64,000 bases of DNA from a virus. The notes under the pieces were generated by a model. The model searched no databases and had not been told where the DNA came from. It saw only the letters and a program-made list of their open reading frames with translations. The stretch is taken from the IMG/VR virus record IMGVR_UViG_3300044675_001894, positions 1 through 64,000 of that record; one strand, written 5' to 3'. Position numbers and translations under genes: made by a program. Positions 41,318-60,391 of the stretch are shown in pieces (the stretch's first letter is position 1; every line of letters starts with the position of its first letter).

Positions 41318-41787
41318 AACCCTTGACAAACGCCAAAACGCCTCAGACGCACCACAATGCGTTCTCAGAGGAGGAGGGAGGGATGTAAGGGGTCAAGGCG
41401 GGCAGTGGTACAAAGTACCCTCAGAGAGGCTCTCGTACGCCTACGAATAGGGCTATGAGCCTTGCTGGGTAAGGGTTTGCGGGGTATGGGTAGGTTACGA
41501 AGTACTCGCCACAGCGCCCCAATTGCTATCCACTGCACACTCGCTCCATATCGGCACCTGCACGCAACACAGAGCCTCCTAGGCACCTCTCCTGCCATCC
41601 TGCGGTATTCATTGATCAATTGAATTCTGTGGGTATTCATGCCTCCTCTCTCCTGTATCTCCTCCTCCATCCGATGGATGGCTGGTCGTTGGGGGCGCCC
41701 AATTCCAGCCCTGTCCCCGCCGTCCCGAGGCTCCAGCCCATGCTGGGCAAGGCTCAAAAGAATTCTCAGGAATTGTTTAATTGGGGG

Positions 41788-41818
41788 TTGACAGATGTAC
41801 CCCATCTGTGCGTTTAAT
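41788..41818 (+). promoter_or_regulatory. Putative early promoter with overlapping palindrome
   Basis: TTGACA 41788-41793, TTTAAT 41813-41818 (long 19-nt spacer); ACAGATG-TACCC-CATCTGT 41791-41809. Confidence 0.4.
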
Positions 41819-41941
41819 GGGGGTGGAGGGGGATGCGTCCCCCGCCTCGGTTCCTTGACAAGTGGCAGGTACGGCACGCAGGCTTCGCCCTGCGCATTTT
41901 GCGTTCCTGCCCTCAGAATCAAACATGGTTCAAAATTCCTC

Positions 41942-42068
41942 AGCGTCACGGGCTGGCTTCGGCTGGCTCGTGGCGCTCAATGAGGGCTGGAGGCATTCCC
42001 CCTGCTTCAGCCCTGATTGAGCGCACAGCGCTCCATTGGCACACAGCCAATGCAGTCCTGAGGAGGAC
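41942..42068 (+). ncRNA. Structured intergenic RNA element E0 (hairpins A/B/C plus SD hairpin)
   Basis: A 41942-41977 with c(UUCG)g loop; B 41973-42024; C 42019-42033; GTCCT-GAGG-AGGAC 42055-42068. Confidence 0.75.
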
Positions 42069-42073
42069 ACACC

Positions 42074-43051
42074 ATGGATATTCAACTATCAACACTCAAT
42101 CCTGTGGAACACGATTTGCTGTACATGGAGCGCCTACGGACAGCGTCCAAAGCGAACTACCAGTACCGAATCACCAGCCACTACTTGATCAGTGCCTATG
42201 GCAAGGAGTTGCGTTGGAGCAATGGCTACGGAAGCCGTGACAGCGTTGCTGTCGTGGACTACCGCACCGATCCAATGCCCACCGAATATGCACAAGCACG
42301 TCTCATGGAGTTGTACGGCGAAACTGCCGAGGCAATGTTCAATGACGGCGTGGTCGGCATTTACGGCTCACTGCCAACCCGTGAGGCTGAACGCTTCACT
42401 GAGGCTCGTATCGCAATGGAGGATGCACGGCGTGACCTGCGTGAGTGTGACACCGAATATGACAGCCGTCCTTGGAGTCGTTACTTCTTGGTCACGTCAT
42501 CGGATGGGCACATTCACTCCAGCACACAGTGCTCCACCTGCAATAAGGGCGTCAATGACACTGAGTTTGCACTCGTGCCTTACCTCAGCGGATCCAGTGC
42601 CGATGTTGCGGTTGCCGATCTCGGATCGGCGCTGTGCTCGGTCTGCTTCCCTGATGCTCCCGTGGAGTCACGTGAGCAGGTCAAGATCAGCGCCAGCGTG
42701 GCGTTGACACTTGCCGAGCAGGGCGTGGAGGCATTCCAGCAAGCCCGAGCCAAGGCTCGTGCGAACGCTGTGAAGCGTGCTCAGGAGCGTTGCGAAGGCA
42801 GTGGTCAACCAACGGTCAGAAGTGATCGCTGGCATCATTGCCCAGTATGCGGATATGGACAGCGTGCGGACGGTAAGTCCCGTGCACATCGCCGTCCTCG
42901 CTTCTACGCCACCAAAGAGGTCGGCTACGACACCAAATACTGGAACGGCACCACGTGGGCGCCATCAACCAAGAAGGTTGACCTACTCACTCGTGAGCAG
43001 GCTGAAGCCGTCTTGGTGGCTCACGGTGGCTCACGAGTCATTCAGGATTGA
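42074..43051 (+). CDS. Hypothetical Cys/His-rich early protein
   Basis: GHIHSSTQCSTC, LCSVCFP, CPVCG...H. Confidence 0.75.
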   Translation: MDIQLSTLNPVEHDLLYMERLRTASKANYQYRITSHYLISAYGKELRWSNGYGSRDSVAVVDYRTDPMPTEYAQARLMELYGETAEAMFNDGVVGIYGSLPTREAERFTEARIAMEDARRDLRECDTEYDSRPWSRYFLVTSSDGHIHSSTQCSTCNKGVNDTEFALVPYLSGSSADVAVADLGSALCSVCFPDAPVESREQVKISASVALTLAEQGVEAFQQARAKARANAVKRAQERCEGSGQPTVRSDRWHHCPVCGYGQRADGKSRAHRRPRFYATKEVGYDTKYWNGTTWAPSTKKVDLLTREQAEAVLVAHGGSRVIQD

Positions 43052-43057
43052 TCATTC

Positions 43058-43136
43058 CCCCAGCGCCTAGGGCGTGCCCGTTCAATCGGGACTGGGGACT
43101 ACTGGCACCCGCCAGTTACAACGACCTGAGGAGGTC
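43058..43136 (+). ncRNA. tRNA-like three-way-junction element T1 plus SD hairpin
   Basis: CCCCAG/CTGGGG, CGCC/GGCG, CCCG-TTCAAT-CGGG, ACTGGC/GCCAGT; covaries with T2. Confidence 0.7.
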
Positions 43137-43141
43137 AAGCC

Positions 43142-43828
43142 ATGAATACAGAAGCAATCTACGACAAGGTGCAGGCAATCCTTGATCGTGCCAATCACCC
43201 GAACACGCCACAAGCGGAAGCCGAGACGGCTCTCGCCATGGCACAACGGCTCATGATGAAGCACGGTCTTGAAGAGTCCGCATTCGCCAAGGCTCAAGAT
43301 CGTGACGAGAACATCGTTACCGATCAGATCCCAATCAGTGGTCAATGGCAACTTCGCCGTCTCGGTCTTGCTGGTGCAATCGCTAGTGCCAACTCTGTTG
43401 CCAACTACCGCTCCACATCGTGGGCGGATGGCAAGAAGTCGTTGGTGTTGGTGGTGTACGGCACTGCTGGTGACATCTTCGCTGTCAAGACACTGTTTGC
43501 ATCGGCAGACTTGCTCGCTTCTCGTGTGATCCCAAAGGGTGATCGGTCATTCCGCAATGCGTGGTGGCTCGGATTCTCCTCGGGAGTGCGTGAGGTGTTG
43601 CGCAAGTCCAAGAACGAAGTGATCGCAGAGCAAGGTGCTGGCACTGGGCTGGTGCTCGCTGACAAGTTCAAGCGTGCAGACGCTGAGATGCGTTCAAAAG
43701 TCAAACTCAAGTCCAGTGGGTACTACAGGTACTCATCGGGTAACGGTTACAACGCTGGTCGTTCTGCTGGTCGTTCGTTCAACACTGGTGGCATCGGTAA
43801 CGGTGTCGCTGGAGCGCTCGGACGATGA
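43142..43828 (+). CDS. DUF2786-domain protein
   Basis: KVQAILDRA......EAETALAMAQRLMMKHG; FRNAWWLGF; GYNAGRSAG. Confidence 0.8.
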   Translation: MNTEAIYDKVQAILDRANHPNTPQAEAETALAMAQRLMMKHGLEESAFAKAQDRDENIVTDQIPISGQWQLRRLGLAGAIASANSVANYRSTSWADGKKSLVLVVYGTAGDIFAVKTLFASADLLASRVIPKGDRSFRNAWWLGFSSGVREVLRKSKNEVIAEQGAGTGLVLADKFKRADAEMRSKVKLKSSGYYRYSSGNGYNAGRSAGRSFNTGGIGNGVAGALGR

Positions 43829-44301
43829 GCATCCATGCATACATGGAGGTAGTGCGGGAGGGCGTTGCAAAGCGCTCTCCCAAAATGCCCGAACATCAAG
43901 CCACGGTGTATGCAATTGAGAATGTGGTGGAGCGTCACTTGCCATCGCAAGTGATCGCTACCAAGAACGCATTCGCTTGGCTGGATCGTGTGTGTGAGAC
44001 CGAAGGCTGGGACACGCCGATGGTTGATCGCATCCGATCCACCAAGTGGGCAGGTGTCGCTAGTGCCGAAGGCAATGTCATCGGCATCAGTGGCTCCAGC
44101 ACGACAGCACTGGTACTGGCTCACGAACTCGCTCACATCGTGTGTGGCGAGCGTGGTCACAATGAGTGTTGGCGTAATGCGTTCGTGAACATCGTCCGAG
44201 ATCACATCTCGGTACAGCATGCGTCACTCCTGCATACCTTGTACGAGCGTTTCCAACTTCAATCAGGTCAGTGGAGGCTGACCGACACATCACGAGTGTG
44301 A
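43825..44301 (+). CDS. HEXXH metallopeptidase-like protein (TIGR04338-like)
   Basis: VLAHELAH...GH; coupled to DUF2786 gene. Confidence 0.7.
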   Translation: MSIHAYMEVVREGVAKRSPKMPEHQATVYAIENVVERHLPSQVIATKNAFAWLDRVCETEGWDTPMVDRIRSTKWAGVASAEGNVIGISGSSTTALVLAHELAHIVCGERGHNECWRNAFVNIVRDHISVQHASLLHTLYERFQLQSGQWRLTDTSRV

Positions 44302-44388
44302 ACTCGTGGTGCTGTCATGGCTCATCGGCGCAAGTTGGTGAGTCATGACAGCATCATCCGATGCTGAATAAAGCGACCTGAGGAGGTC
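44288..44388 (+). ncRNA. Structured element E1
   Basis: A 44288-44311 (GUGA loop); B 22-bp stem 44308-44355 (GCAA loop, 5 G-U); C 44349-44366; SD hairpin 44375-44388. Confidence 0.8.
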
Positions 44389-44392
44389 AACC

Positions 44393-44947
44393 ATGAAAAC
44401 ATCAGAGATCAAGCAGATCATTGCCAAGGATCCGAACGCCGTGTTTCGCATTGGCGGTCGTGGTCGGTACACGCACTACGGCTCAATCACAGAGATTAAA
44501 GAAAATGTCGTGGACACTTACAGCAGTTGGGGTCGCAAGACGGGCACCCGTGTCAATGTGTTATTCACAGTGCGTTACGAGTACTTCACTAGTGGCACTG
44601 AGGCTCATTACGGCTACCCCGAGAAGTTGCCTTCAGTAACACTGGAGCGCAACACTTGGACTAAGCCACGTGACATTGAATGGCACGTGTCGGACTTCGG
44701 TCAGACCATTGAAGAATATGTGGTAACGACTGACGCCGAAGTGAAGGCTGACTGGCAGGCAAAGAAGGACAATGACAATGCCAAACAACAACTGATCAAC
44801 CGAATTCTCAACGACTTCGGAATCGTGTTGAGTGTGGGTGATGAAGCCACTGACAAGCGCTGGGATCACCTAAACGATGAGTTGGACAGACTCAGCCTTG
44901 ACACATTGAAAATGCTTGTACACAACTACACACCTTCACGGGTGTGA
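44393..44947 (+). CDS. Hypothetical early protein
   Basis: 184 aa, preceded by SD hairpin. Confidence 0.75.
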   Translation: MKTSEIKQIIAKDPNAVFRIGGRGRYTHYGSITEIKENVVDTYSSWGRKTGTRVNVLFTVRYEYFTSGTEAHYGYPEKLPSVTLERNTWTKPRDIEWHVSDFGQTIEEYVVTTDAEVKADWQAKKDNDNAKQQLINRILNDFGIVLSVGDEATDKRWDHLNDELDRLSLDTLKMLVHNYTPSRV

Positions 44948-44954
44948 TTGGTTC

Positions 44955-45035
44955 CCCTAGCGCCTCGGGCGTGCCGATTCAATTCGGACTAGGGACTGTG
45001 AGCACTCGCTCACTACAAAATACCTGAGGAGGTAT
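44955..45035 (+). ncRNA. tRNA-like element T2 plus SD hairpin
   Basis: CCCTAG/CTAGGG, CGCC/GGCG, CCGA-TTCAAT-TCGG, GTGAGC/GCTCAC, ATACCT-GAGG-AGGTAT. Confidence 0.7.
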
Positions 45036-45039
45036 AGCC

Positions 45040-45363
45040 ATGGCATATCAACTAACAGACTGGGATCTAGAGCAGATCACTGACACGCTGGACATGTATG
45101 AAGCGGGCACCGTGAGGCGGTACTCGGGTCGTGCGATGTACGGCGAGCAGTGTCTCGGCATCGTGACCGAAGATGTGGCATCAGCATTCATGATCCTCGG
45201 ATCAGCACTCGCTGACTTGGGCAATGACGGTAACGCATTGACAAGAAAACTTCTTCGTGAAGTGCGCCAAGACAGCATGGGTCGTGACTCAGCCGTTGTC
45301 TACTTCCCATCCATCACAATGCCCGAGGGTTACGTGGAGGGTGACGAAGACAGCGACAACTAG
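45040..45363 (+). CDS. Hypothetical acidic early protein
   Basis: YSGRAMYGEQCLGI...DSMG...VYFP. Confidence 0.75.
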   Translation: MAYQLTDWDLEQITDTLDMYEAGTVRRYSGRAMYGEQCLGIVTEDVASAFMILGSALADLGNDGNALTRKLLREVRQDSMGRDSAVVYFPSITMPEGYVEGDEDSDN

Positions 45364-45382
45364 TCGTAAGTGGTAGTCGGGA

Positions 45383-45486
45383 GCATCACGGGTTCGCCCG
45401 TGATGCCCTCACAGTGCATCGGCGTTGTGTCGGTGCATTGTGAGGGCATACAATTGCCCGTTCAACTAATAAGACCTGAGGAGGTC
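45383..45486 (+). ncRNA. Structured element E2
   Basis: A 45383-45406 (UUCG loop); B 45403-45449; C 45444-45459; SD hairpin 45473-45486. Confidence 0.8.
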
Positions 45487-45489
45487 ACC

Positions 45490-45744
45490 ATGGATGCAAC
45501 TATTCACAAAGTAACTGGGCTTCGGATTGAGAAGACTGGTGACTCACGACTCCACACGATTGATCTCGTGATTGAGTACGAAGACTTGGCGTTCAGCCGT
45601 CCCCAGTGGGAGCAGGACAACGAGTCATTCGGTTACGCAAAGTTGGAGTCAACGATCACGCTCTTCATCAGTGACACCGCTGATATTGAGACAGTGTTGT
45701 GGAAGGCGATCGCAGATCTCACTTCCGACCTTGCCAATGCGTGA
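45490..45744 (+). CDS. Hypothetical acidic early protein
   Basis: Start moved to MDATIHK (45490), directly after the SD hairpin. Confidence 0.7.
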   Translation: MDATIHKVTGLRIEKTGDSRLHTIDLVIEYEDLAFSRPQWEQDNESFGYAKLESTITLFISDTADIETVLWKAIADLTSDLANA

Positions 45745-45761
45745 GTAATGAGCAATGGGCA

Positions 45762-45868
45762 GTCATGGCGCAAGCCATGGCGTGCTCGGAGTGCACTGAC
45801 CCCCATCGGTGCATTCCGAGGACGCAAGTCCATACTTAGTAATTCAAAACAGAATCTGAGGAGGTTCT
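45762..45868 (+). ncRNA. Structured element E3
   Basis: A 45762-45781 (GCAA); B 45780-45825; C GGAC-GCAA-GTCC; AGAATCT-GAGG-AGGTTCT 45851-45868. Confidence 0.75.
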
Positions 45869-45872
45869 TACC

Positions 45873-46598
45873 ATGGGTGCAATAACACCAAAACAGCAAG
45901 CGTTCATTCGCACAATGCTCCTTGAGCGTGCTTCAACACTCGGTCTTGATGAGGCTGGCGTTGATCAGTACATCATTGATCAGAAGGTGAATGAGTTGTC
46001 AAACAAGTCAGCGTCCACCGTCATTGATGCGATCAAACGCATTGAAATCAAGCGTGTGGGCACCGATCACTTGCCGAAGGCAGAGCGCACCATTGTCAAC
46101 AAGTATGCGAACCCGTGCACATTGTGCGGTCATCCTGTACCTGTTGGTGCTGGTCATGCATTGCTTATCGGTGGCAAGTGGCAGACGTACCACGCACTCG
46201 GTCAGTGCTCCAGCGAAACTGCTGTAGCGCCCGAGCGTGTGAGCAATGAGTTGTTCGGGACATTGCCTGATGGCTTCTATGCAATGAAGTCAACGGGCAC
46301 CAATGACCTCGTGTTCTATGCGGTGAAGACAAACAAGGGTTTTCATGATCCGAAGTTCAAGGGTCACCGCTCCATCTACCTGATCGTAGGTGGACACAAG
46401 GACGAGCGACTCACTGGTGAGCGTGGCGTGAACGCTGTGAAGCGTCTCGTAGCGCTCAACGATGCAGAGCGTGTGCAGGCACGAGCACTGTACGGTCAAG
46501 AGATCGGACGGTGTGGTGTGTGCGGGCGTCATCTCACTGATGAGGCAACACGCAAGCGAGGCATCGGCAATGACTGCGCAAGCAGGTTGGGCATCTAG
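45873..46598 (+). CDS. DUF6011-domain protein
   Basis: ITPKQ..FI N-terminus; YG.EIGRCGVCGRHLTDE..R.RGIG.DC. Confidence 0.8.
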   Translation: MGAITPKQQAFIRTMLLERASTLGLDEAGVDQYIIDQKVNELSNKSASTVIDAIKRIEIKRVGTDHLPKAERTIVNKYANPCTLCGHPVPVGAGHALLIGGKWQTYHALGQCSSETAVAPERVSNELFGTLPDGFYAMKSTGTNDLVFYAVKTNKGFHDPKFKGHRSIYLIVGGHKDERLTGERGVNAVKRLVALNDAERVQARALYGQEIGRCGVCGRHLTDEATRKRGIGNDCASRLGI

Positions 46599-46605
46599 CC
46601 CAAGG

Positions 46606-46699
46606 ATGTCATGGCGTAAGCCATGGCGTCCTCACAACACATCGGGCAACTGGTGTGCTGTGAGGACGCAAGTCCACTAACAATTACCTGAGGAGGTAA
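46606..46699 (+). ncRNA. Structured element E4
   Basis: A 46606-46629 (GUAA); B 46626-46669 (GCAA); C 46664-46675 (GCAA); TTACCT-GAGG-AGGTAA 46684-46699. Confidence 0.8.
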
Positions 46700-46705
46700 C
46701 AGACC

Positions 46706-48238
46706 ATGAATACACAACTAGGAGAACTAAGCGCATTGCTTAGTCGTGTTGAGCGTGTAGCGCCAGCCATCACGGCTGACCCTGCGCTCCATGCGTTAAG
46801 CAGTGCTCACGATGGCGAAGTCGCTGTAGACCTCGCCCAACCTCTCTTCCCATTCCAGCGTGCTGGTGTGGCGTATGCACTCAAGCAACGCCGTGCCATC
46901 ATCGGAGATGAGATGGGGCTGGGTAAGACTCCACAAGGCATCGCAGTAGCAGTGCACGCACACAAGGAGGGACACAAAGTCCTCGTTGTAGTGCCACCAT
47001 CGCTCCGCATCAACTGGCAACGCTCCTTCGCACTGTTCGCACCGTGGCTCTCAACAGCCATTGTGTCGGGCAACAAGGTGACGGCTCTTCCCAAAGCAGA
47101 TGTGCTCATTATTGGTGACAGCATCATTGACACTTGGTCAGTGAGGCTCGTCAATGCCAAGTTCGGCGCACTGATCGTGGACGAGGCACACCGTGCGAAG
47201 AATGCAAAGTCAGGACGCACCAAGGGCATCGCACATATCGCAAAGTCAATCCCGACTGAAGGATATGTGACGCTCTTGAGCGGAACGATCATCGTGAACC
47301 GTCCGAACGAATTGGTCTCGCCATTGTCAATCATTGGCAGGCTTGACCGAGTGTTCGGTGGTAAGTCAGCGTTCCTGTTTCGTTACTGTGACCCGATCCA
47401 CAACGGCTGGGGTTACGTGTATAACGGAGCAACCAACACCACTGAGTTGAACGACAAATTGCGTGGCACCTGCTACGTGAGGCGTAACAAGTCAGATGTG
47501 TTGAAGGAACTACCTGCCAAGCGCCGTGCTCAGGTTGCTACCGAGATCAGCAACACCGATCTCGTGGCATATCGCTCTGCCGAAGAGAACTTCCGTGACT
47601 TCGTCATCGCCAATGGCGGTGTTGAAGCGTGGCAGAGAGCCTCTAAGGCTGAAGTGATTACACGCTTGAATGCATTGCGCAGGTTGCTAGGCATCGCCAA
47701 GATCCCGTATGTGGTTGAGCACGTAGAAGAACTTGTCGCACAAGGCGAGAAGGTCATCGTGTTCGCACACCACAAAGAAGTCATCGCACAACTAAGCAGT
47801 GCTCTTCATGAGCACGGCGTAGTCAAGGTGGCTGGCGGACTCAGCGATGTGCAGAAGCAGGAAGCAGTTGACGCATTCCAAACTGGTAGCGCCAAGGTGT
47901 TCATCGGACAATTTCAATCCGCTGGTGTTGGTCTCACATTGACCGCATCATCGCATGTCGTGTTCGCTGAATTGCCATGGGAGCCAGCCTCCGCAGTACA
48001 AGCCGAAGACCGTGCGCATCGCATCGGTCAAGACAACGCTGTGGTGGCATGGTGGCTACTGGCTGTAGACAACACAAGCGAGATCCCAACAGTGGACGAT
48101 CGCATGTGGGCGCTACTGAATGCCAAACACGAGACAGTCTCGGCTGTCTTGACGGGGCATGGTGAGGACATGGGCGCCGAGGGTGCGACAAGCATCACTC
48201 AATCGCTCATTGAAGGCATCATCGGCAACGGAGGTTGA
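46706..48238 (+). CDS. SNF2-family (HARP-like) helicase/ATPase
   Basis: DEMGLGKT, DEAH, LSGT, GVGLTLT, QAEDRAHRIGQ. Confidence 0.95.
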   Translation: MNTQLGELSALLSRVERVAPAITADPALHALSSAHDGEVAVDLAQPLFPFQRAGVAYALKQRRAIIGDEMGLGKTPQGIAVAVHAHKEGHKVLVVVPPSLRINWQRSFALFAPWLSTAIVSGNKVTALPKADVLIIGDSIIDTWSVRLVNAKFGALIVDEAHRAKNAKSGRTKGIAHIAKSIPTEGYVTLLSGTIIVNRPNELVSPLSIIGRLDRVFGGKSAFLFRYCDPIHNGWGYVYNGATNTTELNDKLRGTCYVRRNKSDVLKELPAKRRAQVATEISNTDLVAYRSAEENFRDFVIANGGVEAWQRASKAEVITRLNALRRLLGIAKIPYVVEHVEELVAQGEKVIVFAHHKEVIAQLSSALHEHGVVKVAGGLSDVQKQEAVDAFQTGSAKVFIGQFQSAGVGLTLTASSHVVFAELPWEPASAVQAEDRAHRIGQDNAVVAWWLLAVDNTSEIPTVDDRMWALLNAKHETVSAVLTGHGEDMGAEGATSITQSLIEGIIGNGG

Positions 48239-48318
48239 TCGTGGGCGCTCGGCGCCTCATGGTCGGCGCCAGTAGCGACAGACGATGTGTTCTTGTCCTC
48301 ACGAGAACCCATCACAGT

Positions 48319-48421
48319 GCATCACGGGCGCAAGCCCGTGGTGTTCTGACAGTACATTGGCACACCGCTTGTGTACTGTCAGAACATCACCCGATGTTCA
48401 AGTAACAACGCCTGAGGAGGC
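48319..48421 (+). ncRNA. Structured element E5
   Basis: A 48319-48344 (GCAA); B 48340-48388; C 48382-48399; GCCT-GAGG-AGGC 48410-48421. Confidence 0.8.
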
Positions 48422-48424
48422 ACC

Positions 48425-48661
48425 ATGAAAGTAAGTCAAGCAATCAAGTTATTGAGTGAGATCAACCCTGACGAAGAGATCGCTATCTCTTGGTGGGAAT
48501 CAAACTTGTTCACTGACAAAGACAACAACCAACTATTGGCAGACTCAGAACTGTGGCTCAAGGCAGTCGCAGTGTTTGACGCCAACGGTGGTTACGACAG
48601 CGTCAACCAATTGGTATGGGATTACCTCAATTACGACATCAATCAAGAAGGAGAGTTTTAA
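48425..48661 (+). CDS. Small acidic early protein
   Basis: 78 aa after SD hairpin. Confidence 0.7.
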   Translation: MKVSQAIKLLSEINPDEEIAISWWESNLFTDKDNNQLLADSELWLKAVAVFDANGGYDSVNQLVWDYLNYDINQEGEF

Positions 48662-48904
48662 ATGGACATTTCAGAAGCAATTCAAACAATGATCACTAAT
48701 CGCCACCTCAAAGAACACGAAATAGTGGTGAGGTGGTCGTGGTGCGACATCCAAGCGATGTACCCACAGTGGACAGAAGACCAATGCCGAGATGCCCTGT
48801 ATGAAGTTGACGATTATGTACACGAGAGAATCGTGGAACTCGGCAACGATGTGTTGAAGCAACTTGTATACGAAATCGTTGAAACGAAATGGGAGAGTGA
48901 ATAA
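48662..48904 (+). CDS. Small acidic early protein
   Basis: 80 aa, AAGGAG RBS. Confidence 0.7.
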   Translation: MDISEAIQTMITNRHLKEHEIVVRWSWCDIQAMYPQWTEDQCRDALYEVDDYVHERIVELGNDVLKQLVYEIVETKWESE

Positions 48905-49209
48905 TGAACAACATCGGAACACCAATCGGTGCATGGGCAATCATCAAGTGGTATGACTCAGGCATTGAGAGCGAGGTATTCATCTCGTTCGGTACATGGA
49001 ATGAGAACGAGTGGAACGGCGAGTTTGACTCGTTCGGGAATCGTGACGATGAGGTCTTCTTCTACTGCGAAGGTGGAGAAGAGGAACTCAAGTCGCTCAT
49101 GGGTGACAGCAAGGAAGACTTCGTGGTCATCAACTACGCAGTTGACTACAGCATCCCGCTCGTGCTCGCTGACATGGACGAGCCAGTATTCAAGGAGGAA
49201 GCACAATGA
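48904..49209 (+). CDS. Small acidic early protein
   Basis: 101 aa, coupled. Confidence 0.7.
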   Translation: MNNIGTPIGAWAIIKWYDSGIESEVFISFGTWNENEWNGEFDSFGNRDDEVFFYCEGGEEELKSLMGDSKEDFVVINYAVDYSIPLVLADMDEPVFKEEAQ

Positions 49210-49469
49210 TCGGTACAAAGAGTTGGCTACTGACAGGTTGTTATGTAGACGGCACACACGGCGTCTACAGCGCCATGGAAGCGTGCAGGATCGCACGAGA
49301 ACTCGGATGGGATGGGCAACAGCCCACAGACATTGAGGACTCGTGGTACCAAGAAGAGGTAGCCACGGAATGGCTGAACGAAATGATCGCTGATGATGGT
49401 CACTCGTTCGGCTGGCATGACGCCGAATACTTCTACATGCCACAAGCATGGTGGGAGGATGTCGCTTGA
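49206..49469 (+). CDS. Small acidic early protein
   Basis: 87 aa, AGGAGG RBS. Confidence 0.7.
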   Translation: MIGTKSWLLTGCYVDGTHGVYSAMEACRIARELGWDGQQPTDIEDSWYQEEVATEWLNEMIADDGHSFGWHDAEYFYMPQAWWEDVA

Positions 49470-49475
49470 TCGGGA

Positions 49476-49586
49476 GCATCACGGGCTACGGCTCGTGGTG
49501 TCCTCACAGCCCATAAATCATATTTGTGGGTTGTGAGGGCACTCAGTGCCCGATAAATTAATTAATCCCTATGACCTGAGGAGGTC
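49476..49586 (+). ncRNA. Structured element E6
   Basis: A 49476-49501 c(UACG)g; B 21-bp stem 49498-49542; C 49537-49551; SD hairpin 49573-49586. Confidence 0.8.
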
Positions 49587-49588
49587 TT

Positions 49589-49948
49589 ATGTTAGAGCCA
49601 GTAATCACGATGACCGTTGAGCAATGGGAAGAGCAATACGAACCCTTTGTCAATCACCTAGATGCAGATGCATCATGGGCAACCGATGACGCCAACGGCA
49701 TCATGTTTGAAACGTACGGTGCCGAAGTTGATTATGTGTTTGCCCGACCGCTCAACCACACATGGACATATGTGGATGGCGAAGAGGGCACATACATTAT
49801 TGCTGGACGCCATCTCGTAAATCGCATCGGTTACTTCGTAACTGCGGTGCCATGGAAGGATGACTTCAACACCAAGTATGAAATTCAAGTAAGCGCCAAT
49901 GATGATTATTACCAAACAGTGTTAGACCTTGAAGGAGGTAGCAAATGA
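49589..49948 (+). CDS. Small acidic early protein
   Basis: MFETYG.E...WT.VDG...G.H.VNRIGYFVT..PW. Confidence 0.75.
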   Translation: MLEPVITMTVEQWEEQYEPFVNHLDADASWATDDANGIMFETYGAEVDYVFARPLNHTWTYVDGEEGTYIIAGRHLVNRIGYFVTAVPWKDDFNTKYEIQVSANDDYYQTVLDLEGGSK

Positions 49949-50166
49949 GCAAGATCAGTTTTGACAATGTGGATGAAGGTACCGAGGTAGAAGTACTCGT
50001 GCAGATATCCCCGAGGGAGACATTCCCGTACACAGGGATCGTTTCACGAGTCAGTGACACCGAGTTGTCAATGTGGACTACAGACAGTCCGAACGACACT
50101 TACGAGACCGAGCGTGAGATTGATATTCCAATCGCAAAGATCCTTGAACTGGACATCTTTGAATAA
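49945..50166 (+). CDS. Small acidic early protein
   Basis: 73 aa, AGGAGG RBS. Confidence 0.7.
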   Translation: MSKISFDNVDEGTEVEVLVQISPRETFPYTGIVSRVSDTELSMWTTDSPNDTYETEREIDIPIAKILELDIFE

Positions 50167-50202
50167 TGAATCGTTAAGCGAGTCCTGAGAGGCTTGTACG
50201 AA

Positions 50203-50327
50203 GGGTGGCATCAGCCTCGGCTGGTGTCATCCCGTGGATGCTCTGCTTCCTATAGGGGGTCAGCGGAGCGTCCACGGGGTGAGGCAACTGTGCAACACCT
50301 GTACATAACAATGATCTGAGGAGGTCA
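50203..50327 (+). ncRNA. Structured element E7
   Basis: A 50203-50232; B 50227-50282; C weak; TGATCT-GAGG-AGGTCA 50312-50327. Confidence 0.7.
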
Positions 50328-50329
50328 AA

Positions 50330-50575
50330 ATGAGTAAATGGAATGTAACGGTCTCGCTCCAAACGGGCGTGTACCTAAAAGAAGTCATTGCAAATGATCC
50401 ATCAACATTGATTGAGGGAGACCTCAATGAAGCAGATGTGATCAAAGCATTGATTGAGCAATTGCAGTCGGGTGATTCAACACTGGACTGGGTAGTGGAA
50501 GAAGTGCAAACACTGGACGGTCGTGTCGTGCGGTTTGACGATGAGGATCGTGTATGGCTCGGAGATGCAGTATGA
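50330..50575 (+). CDS. Small acidic early protein
   Basis: 81 aa after SD hairpin. Confidence 0.7.
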   Translation: MSKWNVTVSLQTGVYLKEVIANDPSTLIEGDLNEADVIKALIEQLQSGDSTLDWVVEEVQTLDGRVVRFDDEDRVWLGDAV

Positions 50576-50778
50576 GCAAAGGCTGGGTCACACAGATCGT
50601 CATGCTTCTCGGTGTCACGGAGATGGAAGCCGAACAGATTGACAAGTACGCCCTTGAAGAAGGGCTGTACAACGAGATAGACAGCAGTGAAGCCAGTGTG
50701 GCAGAACTTAAAGGGTTCTACGCAATGGTTAGCGATGAGTACAGAAGAGCAAACAACATTGAAACAAAGAGCCTTTAG
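50572..50778 (+). CDS. Small hypothetical protein
   Basis: Start MSKG (50572) overlaps upstream stop, GGAG RBS. Confidence 0.6.
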   Translation: MSKGWVTQIVMLLGVTEMEAEQIDKYALEEGLYNEIDSSEASVAELKGFYAMVSDEYRRANNIETKSL

Positions 50779-50789
50779 GAGGGCACAAC

Positions 50790-52007: not shown

Positions 52008-53033
52008 ATGTCAAGAGAAACCAGCCAGTGGCTCAACCAGAACGTTCTGGTGGGCTTCACATCCAAGCGTGGAAATGCATGGCACTACAAGGCAACTGAA
52101 CAAGGAACCGAGCCAAACCATTATGAGCAGGCGATCCCTGTTGAAGATGTGCGCAGGCGTTTGTTCAACTGGCAGGCTGTTGAAGCACCAGTGTTCGTTC
52201 AAGTTCCTGACAACGCTGGAGTCAACCGTTACATTGCGCAGAATGACCGCAAGGCAATTGTTCGCAACGACACCTATGAGACTCTCGGTCTCTTCAAGGA
52301 CTCGTATCAGATCCACCAGTACAACGAGTGGTTGATCGGAACCATCAGCAACATCATTGATGACAGCAACCTTCAGATCGGCTCTGCGGGCTTGCTCCGC
52401 AACGGTGGAGTTGCTTGGGTCAGCATTGAGATGCCTGAGACAGTTCAGACCAAGGCGGGCTTTGAGTTCCGTCCTCACCTACTCGGAACTACGAGCCACA
52501 ACGGCACACTTGCCACCACCTTCAAGCGCACAGTCACCGCTGTGGTGTGTGACAACACGCTTGCTGGAGCACTTGGTGAGAGCGGATCAGAGTTCAAGAC
52601 CCGTCACAGCAAGTTCAGCAACGGACGCATCCAAGACATCCGTGATGCTCTCGGAATCATCCACACCATGGCAGACGAAGTCAGCCTTGAGATTGAGCGC
52701 TTGTCATCATTGACAGTCACCCAGTCTGAATGGGATGCCATCGTTGACCGCTTGGTGCCAGTGAGTATCACTGATGATGCTCGCCCTCAAGCCGTGAGCC
52801 GTGCTCAGAACAAGCAAGAGTTGATCCGTCACCTCTACAAGAATGACCCACGCTGTGCTCCATGGGTTGGTACCCAACTCGGAGTGTTGCAGGCATTCAA
52901 CACATGGACTCACCACTTCAGTGGCAAGGACGAGTCCCGTGTAGAGCGCAACGCAATGAATGCACTCAACGGCAAGACCGATGAGTTTGACCGTCAGGTG
53001 CTTCGCATCATGAATGACGTGGTACTCGTATGA
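52008..53033 (+). CDS. DUF932-family phage/plasmid protein
   Basis: SAGLL.NG..AW, TSHNGT, VVCDNT, RHS motifs. Confidence 0.85.
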   Translation: MSRETSQWLNQNVLVGFTSKRGNAWHYKATEQGTEPNHYEQAIPVEDVRRRLFNWQAVEAPVFVQVPDNAGVNRYIAQNDRKAIVRNDTYETLGLFKDSYQIHQYNEWLIGTISNIIDDSNLQIGSAGLLRNGGVAWVSIEMPETVQTKAGFEFRPHLLGTTSHNGTLATTFKRTVTAVVCDNTLAGALGESGSEFKTRHSKFSNGRIQDIRDALGIIHTMADEVSLEIERLSSLTVTQSEWDAIVDRLVPVSITDDARPQAVSRAQNKQELIRHLYKNDPRCAPWVGTQLGVLQAFNTWTHHFSGKDESRVERNAMNALNGKTDEFDRQVLRIMNDVVLV

Positions 53034-53422
53034 CCGAAGCGCTGGTGGGGGAGCAATCCCCCACCTATGCTCGGGACACCGAATACACAGCCTTACCATT
53101 CCCCGAAGTGATGGCGGAATGGAGATCGCAAGCCAAGTGCAAAGATGAAGACGGATCACTGTGGTTTGCCAGCAAGCCGAAAGGCATTAACAACTCATCC
53201 ATCAAAGGAAGAATTGTTAACAGCCGTAGGAAGCGGGCACAGCGTATTTGTAAAGTGTGTCCTGTTCAGTATGAATGCCTGCGCTACGCCGTCTTGAATG
53301 ACTTCAGGGATGGCATATGGGCTGGTTATGAAATGGATGACCTCACACATACAGACCGTCAAGTACTTCGTCAGCGTATTAAACGAGCAGAACGAAAGTT
53401 AAGTAAGACTGTCAATAAGTGA
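53030..53422 (+). CDS. whiB: WhiB-family transcription factor
   Basis: W..QAKC...C..CPV..EC...GIWAG. Confidence 0.85.
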   Translation: MTEALVGEQSPTYARDTEYTALPFPEVMAEWRSQAKCKDEDGSLWFASKPKGINNSSIKGRIVNSRRKRAQRICKVCPVQYECLRYAVLNDFRDGIWAGYEMDDLTHTDRQVLRQRIKRAERKLSKTVNK

Positions 53423-59722: not shown

Positions 59723-60391
59723 TCACGGTTTCTGGGTATTTAGAGATTCACGTATTTTGTTAATAGCGTCAGCGCCCATAGACCTACGTTGTGAGCGGGT
59801 CTTTGCTGGTGTTTTAGCAGGTGCAGTACGCTGTGCTTTCATCTGAGCCACTCCAGCAACAGCACTTTGTTGCAGTGGGGTCAATGGTGGGCGAGCAGGG
59901 GGAGGAGTTCCTGGTGCTGGGAACGCTTGGTTCTGCGATGGAGTTCCGAATGGTTGTACTCCTGGCGCTGGTGGTGGCATTGCTTTACTAGGCAATGCTG
60001 GTGCAGGGGACTTTTGAAAAGCGGCTTGATATTGTGCTCGGTTAGCAAGTCCTACATACTGACTATAAAAGTTCTGACCAGCCTGCTGACTCTGTTGAGC
60101 CTGTTGGGCTTGTGCTTGACGGTTCAGGTTTCGGTTAACAAGCCCTTGTCCAATTGCATTAACAGCATCGGCAGTAGCGCCTGGTTTGGTGCGGGTGTCA
60201 CGGATTTCTCCGCCACGCCACGCCTGCTGTACGCCAGCATTTGGGGCTTGGTACTTATTTTGCTGAGTGCGATTACCCTGCTTAAACTCACCCTGCATCC
60301 ATGATGGTGTGCGGTTTAAGTAACTCGCATTCATTGACTGCCAGCGAGAGGTGCTTAAGTTACCAATGTAGTCACTGTCATTGTCAGCCAT
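59723..60391 (-). CDS. Q/P/A-rich disordered protein
   Basis: Low-complexity 222 aa. Confidence 0.65.
   Translation of the reverse strand: MADNDSDYIGNLSTSRWQSMNASYLNRTPSWMQGEFKQGNRTQQNKYQAPNAGVQQAWRGGEIRDTRTKPGATADAVNAIGQGLVNRNLNRQAQAQQAQQSQQAGQNFYSQYVGLANRAQYQAAFQKSPAPALPSKAMPPPAPGVQPFGTPSQNQAFPAPGTPPPARPPLTPLQQSAVAGVAQMKAQRTAPAKTPAKTRSQRRSMGADAINKIRESLNTQKP

Follow-up and report, generated by a model that had tools for sequence, protein, structure and literature searches.

Introduction

Start-associated sequences (SAS) were described in the Cluster K mycobacteriophages in 2011 (PMC3203893), and according to papers of 2024–2025 their function is still unknown (PMC11373665, PMC12699233). Here we analyze a comparable element in a 97-kb freshwater actinobacterial phage, represented by a single IMG/VR virus record of 96,857 bp (IMGVR_UViG_3300044675_001894), whose first 64 kb (64,000 nucleotides) are called the window in what follows. 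Ten genes of a rightward operon in the window start behind a small RNA hairpin that encloses the ribosome-binding site in part, and the same start module is found in related phages. The Cluster K SAS are the closest known elements, the module being an analogue and not a homologue of them. Both are short asymmetric repeats that contain a Shine–Dalgarno core between complementary outer parts (GGG...CCC in SAS), and both are present in 11–19 copies per genome, only in the non-structural half, in actinobacterial phages. They lie 3–9 nt before gene starts with a strong ATG bias and in one orientation, they serve genes that follow unusually long gaps and are accompanied by a second, larger upstream element, and one reverse copy is located away from any gene start. 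As in SAS, the core of the module is conserved beyond the need of pairing with ribosomal RNA (rRNA), and the module combines start proximity, ATG preference and fixed orientation with a position at non-structural genes after gaps of more than 50 bp. The sequences themselves are unrelated (CCTGAGGAGG here, GGGATAGGAGCCC in Cluster K), and the SAS consensus GGGATAGGAGCCC is absent from the module. Moreover, the flanks of the window module vary and covary, as expected for an RNA hairpin, whereas the Cluster K 13-mer is fixed throughout. The upstream element of Cluster K, termed ESAS, has been read as a promoter or DNA site and has no RNA pairing support, in contrast with the RNA folds with G.U pairs found here and the ribozymes of the relatives.

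Other known systems share part of this organization. Hammerhead ribozymes clustered beside phage and prophage genes have been read as mRNA processing elements (Perreault et al. 2011, PMC3088659). Comparable arrays, with type II or type I cores between small operon genes that imply processing of a long RNA, are present in two lineages that carry the module, a sister clade and a lower-GC lineage, whereas the window has no hammerhead and other folds fill the slot. That study describes no constant hairpin-held binding site 3′ of each ribozyme (PMC3088659). In the synthetic insulator RiboJ, the ribosome-binding site is preceded by the sTRSV hammerhead and a hairpin of 23 nt (PMC6206723). The insulator resembles the module in the succession of processing element, hairpin and binding site, and in giving every gene an equal 5′ context. 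RiboJ is, however, an engineered device whose hairpin lies upstream of the binding site without containing it, while insulation by the natural module is our proposal. In the early region of phage T7, RNase III processing hairpins are located in the gaps of a polycistronic RNA. There, as in the window, long stable gap hairpins are each followed by the start site of the next gene, although RNase III cleavage is putative in our case and we know of no start-site hairpin shared by the T7 early genes.

Start Hairpins of the Rightward Operon

The sequence CTGAGGAGG occurs ten times in the window, exclusively on the + strand and between 42.06 and 50.32 kb, with an expectation of 0.32; none of 100 shuffles reaches ten copies. 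Each copy forms a hairpin with a stem of 4–7 bp, the loop GAGG and a 3′ arm composed of AGG plus 1–4 nt (Table 1), with a folding energy of −5.7 to −7.7 kcal/mol. The stem ends 2–6 nt before the start codon and the AGG is 4–9 nt from it, all ten starts being ATG. An earlier note, made from the letters of the window alone, had listed the ten hairpins with exactly these extents, and the spacing of 2–6 nt that it gave coincides with the one measured. The eleventh site that it added, at 50771, does exist and fold, but we rejected it as a member of the family: its loop is another one, it overlaps the stop codon of the upstream gene and no structured gap precedes it. Its description of an invariant loop within a covarying outer stem is correct, except that the CT of CTGAGGAGG merely complements the AG of the ribosome-binding site. 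The DUF932 gene has an open Shine–Dalgarno sequence as had been claimed, an unpaired AAGGAG after an 89-nt gap that contains a promoter-like match (TTGCAA-17-TAGTTT).

To study selection on the hairpin, we aligned 125 distinct copies, found in this phage or in related contigs and picked solely by the 10-mer and a nearby start codon. The related contigs are from IMG/VR environmental samples; 59 related loci were obtained via the helicase protein of the operon and further ones via a pattern scan. Among 164 distinct motif contexts in related loci, 160 have at least four pairs. The first free pair (7–18) is formed in 125 of 125 copies, as AU in 83, GC in 29, UA in 9 and CG in 4, and the next one (6–19) in 104, with five pair types; the third is C-G in 114 copies and U.G in the other 11. 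The fold belongs to the + strand RNA, since these U.G pairs would become A-C mismatches on the opposite strand. The covariation score is 0.304, compared with 0.111 for shuffles (0 of 500 as high) and at most 0.089 with slid partners, so the compensatory stem changes that had been noticed in the window are confirmed by all four Watson-Crick types at pair 7–18. The 125 copies share kinship and represent 23 distinct hairpin sequences, the independent events being far fewer than the copies. The stem can also switch in front of one and the same gene. For the helicase it is TTACCT/AGGTAA here, GACCT/AGGTC in the related locus L136 and GTACCT/AGGTAT in L139, and for the DUF6011 gene it is AGAATCT/AGGTTCT here and TGAAACTT/AGGTTTTA in L136. 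Positions 1 and 2 of the loop (G and A) are invariant in the 125 copies.

The stability of the hairpin is kept within a narrow range, with a mean of −5.55 kcal/mol and a standard deviation of 0.73 across stems of 4–8 bp. If the composition of the outer pairs were independent of stem length the standard deviation would be 2.07 (minimum 1.64 in 500 trials); the observed value is below all trials and, therefore, longer stems are built of weaker pairs. Pairing energies with the ribosome were calculated with what we take to be a generic actinobacterial 16S rRNA 3′ tail, from which that of the host may differ. With this tail, GAGGAGGU forms about 8 pairs and the modules reach −11.5 to −12.9 kcal/mol, whereas for the other genes of the phage the medians are −7.3 kcal/mol (16S duplex) and −2.35 kcal/mol (local fold). 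The hairpin of the module costs −5.7 to −7.4 kcal/mol and, when this is subtracted from its strong duplex, the net values are like those of the other genes. Removal of the 5′ arm in silico leaves the binding site paired elsewhere, instead of free, at nine of the ten sites, a modeled refolding that gives weak backing to an insulating role.

In a rough gene map of the phage nearly all genes are on the minus strand, and rightward genes are confined to 42.07–53.4 kb and to a two-gene unit at 77.77–78.2 kb. The rightward operon encodes DUF2786/DUF7168 and DUF6011 proteins, an SNF2-family helicase, the DUF932 protein (52008-53033; Pfam E 2.8e-35), many small proteins without a family and, as its final gene, a WhiB-family regulator (53030-53422). 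The WhiB gene, which is the best clue, and the DUF families of the operon indicate that the host is probably an actinobacterium. The closest isolates according to the window helicase are Arthrobacter phages, with a protein identity of 34%, and megablast of the operon against isolated phages gave no match. From gene content, the operon would be of the replication or early type. Promoter-like (sigma-70-like) and intrinsic-terminator-like matches are no commoner in it than in shuffles, and it is probably read as a single long transcript with neither promoters nor terminators inside.

Small hairpins with other loops also enclose the ribosome-binding sites of three large minus-strand genes of the phage (Table 1).

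Folded Gaps and Putative Ribozymes Upstream of the Hairpins

The position of the module follows a simple rule. It is present at all ten operon genes behind a structured gap of 71–414 nt, the sole exception being the DUF932 gene with its 89-nt gap, and at none of the ten genes whose start overlaps the preceding gene or follows a gap of 11 nt or less. The longest gap is a 414-nt non-coding leader (41641-42054) directly 5′ of the first hairpin. Every gap ahead of a hairpin is strongly folded, and two forms, which we call type A and type B, are recurrent.

Type A elements have 49 distinct copies among the relatives. Their junction core of about 45 nt (43058-43100 and 44954-44997 in the window) is formed by three covarying helices with invariant UCCCC, UG and GGGAC and a hairpin loop, UUCAAU, that resembles a T-loop. 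No tRNA is predicted in the window by ARAGORN, and the junction is thus not called a tRNA; it might act as a signal for processing or represent a new ribozyme. In type B elements, the short hairpin that ends the element has the loop A(C/U)(C/U)C or GCAA (45364-45472, 45745-45850, 46599-46683 and 49470-49572). With few conserved nucleotides, these elements look like nuclease substrates more than ribozymes, as far as sequence can tell. In Rfam, cmscan gave nothing relevant, either for the complete window (gathering threshold) or for the operon (E ≤ 10, no ribozyme family), and no family is matched by the folded elements of the window. The hammerhead models RF00163, RF00008 and RF02276 have no match at E ≤ 1 in the genome of this phage.

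In relatives the same slot is filled by hammerhead cores. In a sister clade (G003 and G009, with helicases 67–69% identical), type II hammerhead cores precede most copies of the module. A single-family search with RF02276 gave ten full-length type II matches with 25.7–36.4 bits (cut-off 37) and E-values down to 3.6e-7, which end 1–13 nt 5′ of the module. A lower-GC lineage (L097, L089, L075 and L020) has type I cores ahead of the module instead. Six of these are fully canonical by pattern, with the predicted cleavage site 15–18 nt 5′ of UGAGGAGG. The 14 distinct type I copies have paired bases in 100% of the cells of stem I and in 97.6% of those of stem III, with a stem covariation of 0.545 versus 0.136 (0 of 500). 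The best Rfam score of type I, in a single-family search, is 21.6 bits and below the cut-off of 34, and cmscan of the lower-GC loci gave no match at the gathering threshold or at E ≤ 1, these E-values counting all 4227 families. Several type I copies have an A6a insertion, reported to be slow by Perreault et al. (2011, PMC3088659). The type A and type B elements of the window sit in slots that are occupied by ribozymes in these relatives and, therefore, we consider them candidates for new processing signals.

We also sought, as a candidate binding factor, a phage protein common to all lineages with the hairpin; in the fragments compared, the lower-GC lineage has no early protein in common with this phage. 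This points to a partner on the host side, namely the ribosome, rather than to a phage protein.

Two further observations were made in these relatives. In type II hammerheads of the sister clade (for example L141 at 1290-1350 and 1575-1635, and G003:C1:90876-94098), the catalytic strand CUGAYGA precedes a sequence complementary to itself, CUGAUGAGUCAUCAG or CUGACGAGUCGUCAG, and core position 7 covaries with the downstream base. Such a sequence pattern suggests a selected alternative hairpin that would sequester the core, perhaps after cleavage. The more distant relative L144 (helicase 52% identical) has no start hairpin. It carries on the minus strand a different repeat, AGGATTCGTCC, about 35 nt 5′ of six minus-strand gene starts that use the site TAAGGTAA; this repeat probably serves as a phage promoter, rather than as a start hairpin.

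A Complementary Leader RNA at 77.6 kb

The motif has a single reverse copy in the genome, at 77,692 and thus outside the window. It is located in a 190-nt gap between a Rep-like winged-helix (helix–turn–helix) gene on the minus strand (77,090-77,575) and the two small rightward genes, and is part of a structured leader RNA that displays ACCUCCUCAGG, to which the core of the start hairpin is exactly complementary. One reverse copy at 27–29 kb from the cluster is also found in four of five complete or near-complete relatives. The leader is present in 20 of the 20 loci with a Rep-like protein at least 83% identical, in 13 distinct versions in which the 11-mer is invariant and the flanks vary. Upstream of it there is a conserved promoter with an extended −10 (TTGTTA-16-TGcTACACT). 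The fold consists of a 17-bp outer stem, an internal loop with the invariant (G/A)ACCUCCUCAGG and an inner hairpin with a 15-nt loop, and it is supported by nine pairs with double changes and by many G.U pairs that are valid only on the + strand. The loop of the inner hairpin is CUUUCCCUCCUUUCU, or CUUUACCUCCUUUCU in one group, and CUUUCCCUCCUUUCU resembles the 16S rRNA 3′ tail. Read on the minus strand, the reverse copy has no start codon and lacks the fourth pair, which is present in all 125 true modules. Its complement has no cis partner on the leader's own short transcript, and the first gene 3′ of the leader has no visible ribosome-binding site. The predicted duplexes between the leader and the ten sites have energies of −23 to −30 kcal/mol. 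The sister clade keeps the hairpins and lacks the reverse copy. In its complete genome G003 there are 14 hairpins, yet no reverse copy was found even with one mismatch allowed, and the equivalent intergenic region of G003 has no CCUCC motif. As G003 keeps the modules without the reverse copy, the module cannot depend on the leader RNA in any fundamental way.

Antisense and regulatory RNAs such as c4 of phages P1 and P7, 6C and RsaE block ribosome-binding regions in trans by means of pyrimidine-rich loops. By analogy, the leader could act in this way through its exposed pyrimidine-rich loops; it would differ from them, judged by its sequence, in addressing ten identical sites with an 11-nt exact match and in the additional mimic of the 16S tail. 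Cluster K offers a parallel. Mycobacterium phage Anaya has 15 forward SAS copies and one reverse copy, the latter (L210:29830-29910; record 59,830-59,910) after a terminator-like hairpin in the non-coding gap of 385 bp that separates gp96 from gp97. On the + strand RNA, which is the early-gene strand, it places CCUCCUAUCC in the apical loop of a hairpin that is conserved across 133 Cluster K records. In two subgroups the loop is less complementary to the consensus (Ekdilam and Hammy, CCUCCUUCCCC) or unrelated (SirPhilip), and we take the parallel as suggestive only.

Beside the leader, four or five iteron-like repeats GTGACACTAC(T/C) are present at 77,180-77,280 (L177:13180-13280), inside the 3′ part of the Rep-like gene; they are probably a replication origin.

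Table 1. Coordinates of the hairpins and folded elements (window numbering unless genome numbering is stated).
Feature	Position	Strand	CTGAGGAGG start	Structure	Start codon and gene
Start hairpin 1	42055-42068	+	42058	GTCCT-GAGG-AGGAC, 5 bp	ATG 42074; 325-aa protein, no Pfam family
Start hairpin 2	43123-43136	+	43126	GACCT-GAGG-AGGTC	ATG 43142; DUF2786/DUF7168 protein
Start hairpin 3	44375-44388	+	44378	GACCT-GAGG-AGGTC	ATG 44393
Start hairpin 4	45020-45035	+	45024	ATACCT-GAGG-AGGTAT, 6 bp	ATG 45040
Start hairpin 5	45473-45486	+	45476	GACCT-GAGG-AGGTC	ATG 45490
Start hairpin 6	45851-45868	+	45856	AGAATCT-GAGG-AGGTTCT, 7 bp, one U.G pair	ATG 45873; DUF6011 protein
Start hairpin 7	46684-46699	+	46688	TTACCT-GAGG-AGGTAA, 6 bp	ATG 46706; SNF2-family helicase
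Start hairpin 8	48410-48421	+	48412	GCCT-GAGG-AGGC, 4 bp	ATG 48425
Start hairpin 9	49573-49586	+	49576	GACCT-GAGG-AGGTC	ATG 49589
Start hairpin 10	50312-50327	+	50316	TGATCT-GAGG-AGGTCA, 6 bp, one U.G pair	ATG 50330
Look-alike site	50771-50784	+		GCCTT-TAGG-AGGGC; folds, −5.5 kcal/mol	ATG 50790
Type A element	43052-43122	+		three-way junction with invariant UUCAAU loop, then short hairpin and A/C-rich spacer	
Long perfect hairpin, then short hairpin	44302-44374	+		from fold	
Type A element, copy two	44948-45019	+		from fold and copies in relatives	
Type B element	45364-45472	+		tetraloop hairpin, long hairpin of 15-20 bp, short hairpin	
Type B element	45745-45850	+		from fold	
Type B element	46599-46683	+		from fold	
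Longer type B-like hairpin set	48239-48409	+		from fold	
Type B element	49470-49572	+		from fold	
Several strong hairpins	50167-50311	+		from fold	
Structured leader RNA	genome 77,616-77,775 (L177:13616-13775)	+		covariation-supported fold	
Small ribosome-binding-site hairpin	1931-1950	minus		TAATCCT-AGG-AGGATTA	before gene 854-1930
Small ribosome-binding-site hairpin	genome ~80,913-80,935	minus		GCCT-CAGG-AGGC	before gene 79,290-80,912
Small ribosome-binding-site hairpin	genome ~82,491-82,512	minus		ACT-GAGG-AGT	before gene 80,916-82,490

Possible Functions of the Module

We think that each site is a cis-acting, insulated module with which translation starts anew on a polycistronic RNA that is punctuated and probably processed, a reading to which we give an even chance of being right. 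The region of 42.07–53.4 kb would be transcribed into one long RNA divided by the folded punctuation elements. Behind each of them there would be no translational coupling, so that the next cistron would need a ribosome entry of its own, which the module would supply. It would do so with the extended Shine–Dalgarno sequence GAGGAGGU, the 3′ half of which (AGG plus 1–4 nt) is paired with an upstream CCU/UCU-plus-N arm while GAGG is left as a loop. The short hairpin would provide the same weak, local and openable state of the binding site in every cassette, at about −5.5 kcal/mol. It would offset the over-strong complementarity to rRNA and also keep the purine run from pairing with adjacent GC-rich arms or coding sequence. 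The outcome would be a uniform initiation rate irrespective of the gene or element that is swapped in. Cleavage at the elements, and the effects on translation, are what we infer from the sites and their folds. The coupling to upstream processing that the earlier note had suggested gains support from the hammerhead cores directly upstream of the module in sister lineages and from the folded gaps of the window. Several points weigh against this reading. The genome encodes an exact complement of the core in a conserved RNA, which is more in keeping with control in trans than with a device that acts purely in cis. The loop seems to be constrained by something besides pairing with the ribosome, since the pairing of AAGGAGG with the rRNA tail would be at least as good and an A at the first loop position would pair better. 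In addition, the upstream elements of the window are not hammerheads and fit no known model of a ribozyme or RNase site.

The hairpin could, more tentatively, be chiefly an operator for the leader RNA as a trans-acting factor. The ACCUCCUCAGG of the leader would then pair with CCUGAGGAGGU of the ten mRNAs, perhaps from a GAGG/CCUC loop–loop contact, and once made it would stop the first cistrons from being translated or mark them out for a double-strand RNase, while its second motif, the 16S-tail mimic CUUUCCCUCCUUUCU, could cover the AAGGAGG sites of coupled cistrons. The existence of just one reverse copy per genome, conserved in all the close loci with its invariant 11-mer, agrees with such a role, as do the covarying fold and conserved promoter of the leader, the strength of the predicted duplexes and the fact that the copy makes no proper module on the minus strand and has no partner in cis; Anaya, with its lone reverse sequence in a conserved apical loop, provides the parallel. 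G003, however, maintains its hairpins with no reverse copy and no CCUCC in the equivalent region, the Cluster K loop is not always complementary to the consensus, and no covariation between the flanks of hairpin and leader is visible because the core never varies. The small-RNA operator that had been proposed earlier gains support from the single conserved complementary leader RNA, but G003 and the lower-GC lineage speak against one trans factor that would be obligate. In this clade, control in trans by means of the leader RNA is a real possibility. That hairpins and reverse copy constitute a phage riboregulatory pair silencing a class of early cistrons, and that the Cluster K reverse copy is the same device, appears rather doubtful to us.

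It is unlikely that the module mainly protects the processed mRNA, with a 30S subunit on the strong site near the new 5′ end and the hairpin blocking decay by RNase J or RNase E, although both enzymes are present in Actinobacteria and the STAB-SD element of cryIIIA protects its mRNA by such a 5′-end block. The distances from the predicted type I cleavage sites and type II ribozymes suit this role, and so does a complementarity to rRNA far above that of the other genes of the phage. On the other hand, the AGG is always 4–9 nt from the ATG, so the module is at least a translation site, and a hairpin tuned to a weak stability would be superfluous in a stabilizer. The protection of processed 5′ ends is compatible with the cis module and with the trans-acting RNA alike. 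An RNA thermometer in which the binding site opens with rising lake temperature would be expected to have a short hairpin of narrow and modest stability over part of that site, as is the case here. Yet the stems are mostly plain Watson-Crick with a CCU/UCU 5′ arm, lacking the mismatches or U-runs of ROSE and fourU elements; the loop already contains half of the binding site, nothing ties the early genes to temperature and no thermometer family of Rfam matches. We consider this very improbable, and we hold equally slim the chance that the repeat acts as DNA, either as a site for a phage repressor, similar to the Cluster A mycobacteriophage stoperators, or as a joint at which cassettes are swapped by recombination. 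The single orientation, the intergenic location, the highly mosaic cassettes at its flanks and the identical hairpin variants ahead of different genes in different relatives would be in line with a DNA element; in contrast, what is conserved in the outer stem is the pairing rather than the sequence, with all four pair types represented and U.G pairs that fit one strand, the distance to the ATG is fixed and the core is a ribosome-binding sequence. Both the thermometer and the DNA-level explanation fit poorly. An antitermination hairpin of the boxB kind was also considered and dropped, as the four-base loop is not GNRA and there is one hairpin per start codon, downstream of the folded elements.

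Conclusions

A cis-acting start module on a punctuated RNA is, in our opinion, the most economical reading of the ten hairpins. The module family joins two puzzles, the SAS, which have been without a mechanism since 2011, and the purpose of the intergenic hammerhead arrays of phages. What it presents is a constant start module behind interchangeable elements, namely two hammerhead types and two uncharacterized RNA folds. If the hairpins and the reverse copy were a riboregulatory pair, the Cluster K SAS would gain a mechanism after 15 years. If our preferred reading of a cis-acting module is true, it would be a natural counterpart of the RiboJ-type insulators of synthetic biology.

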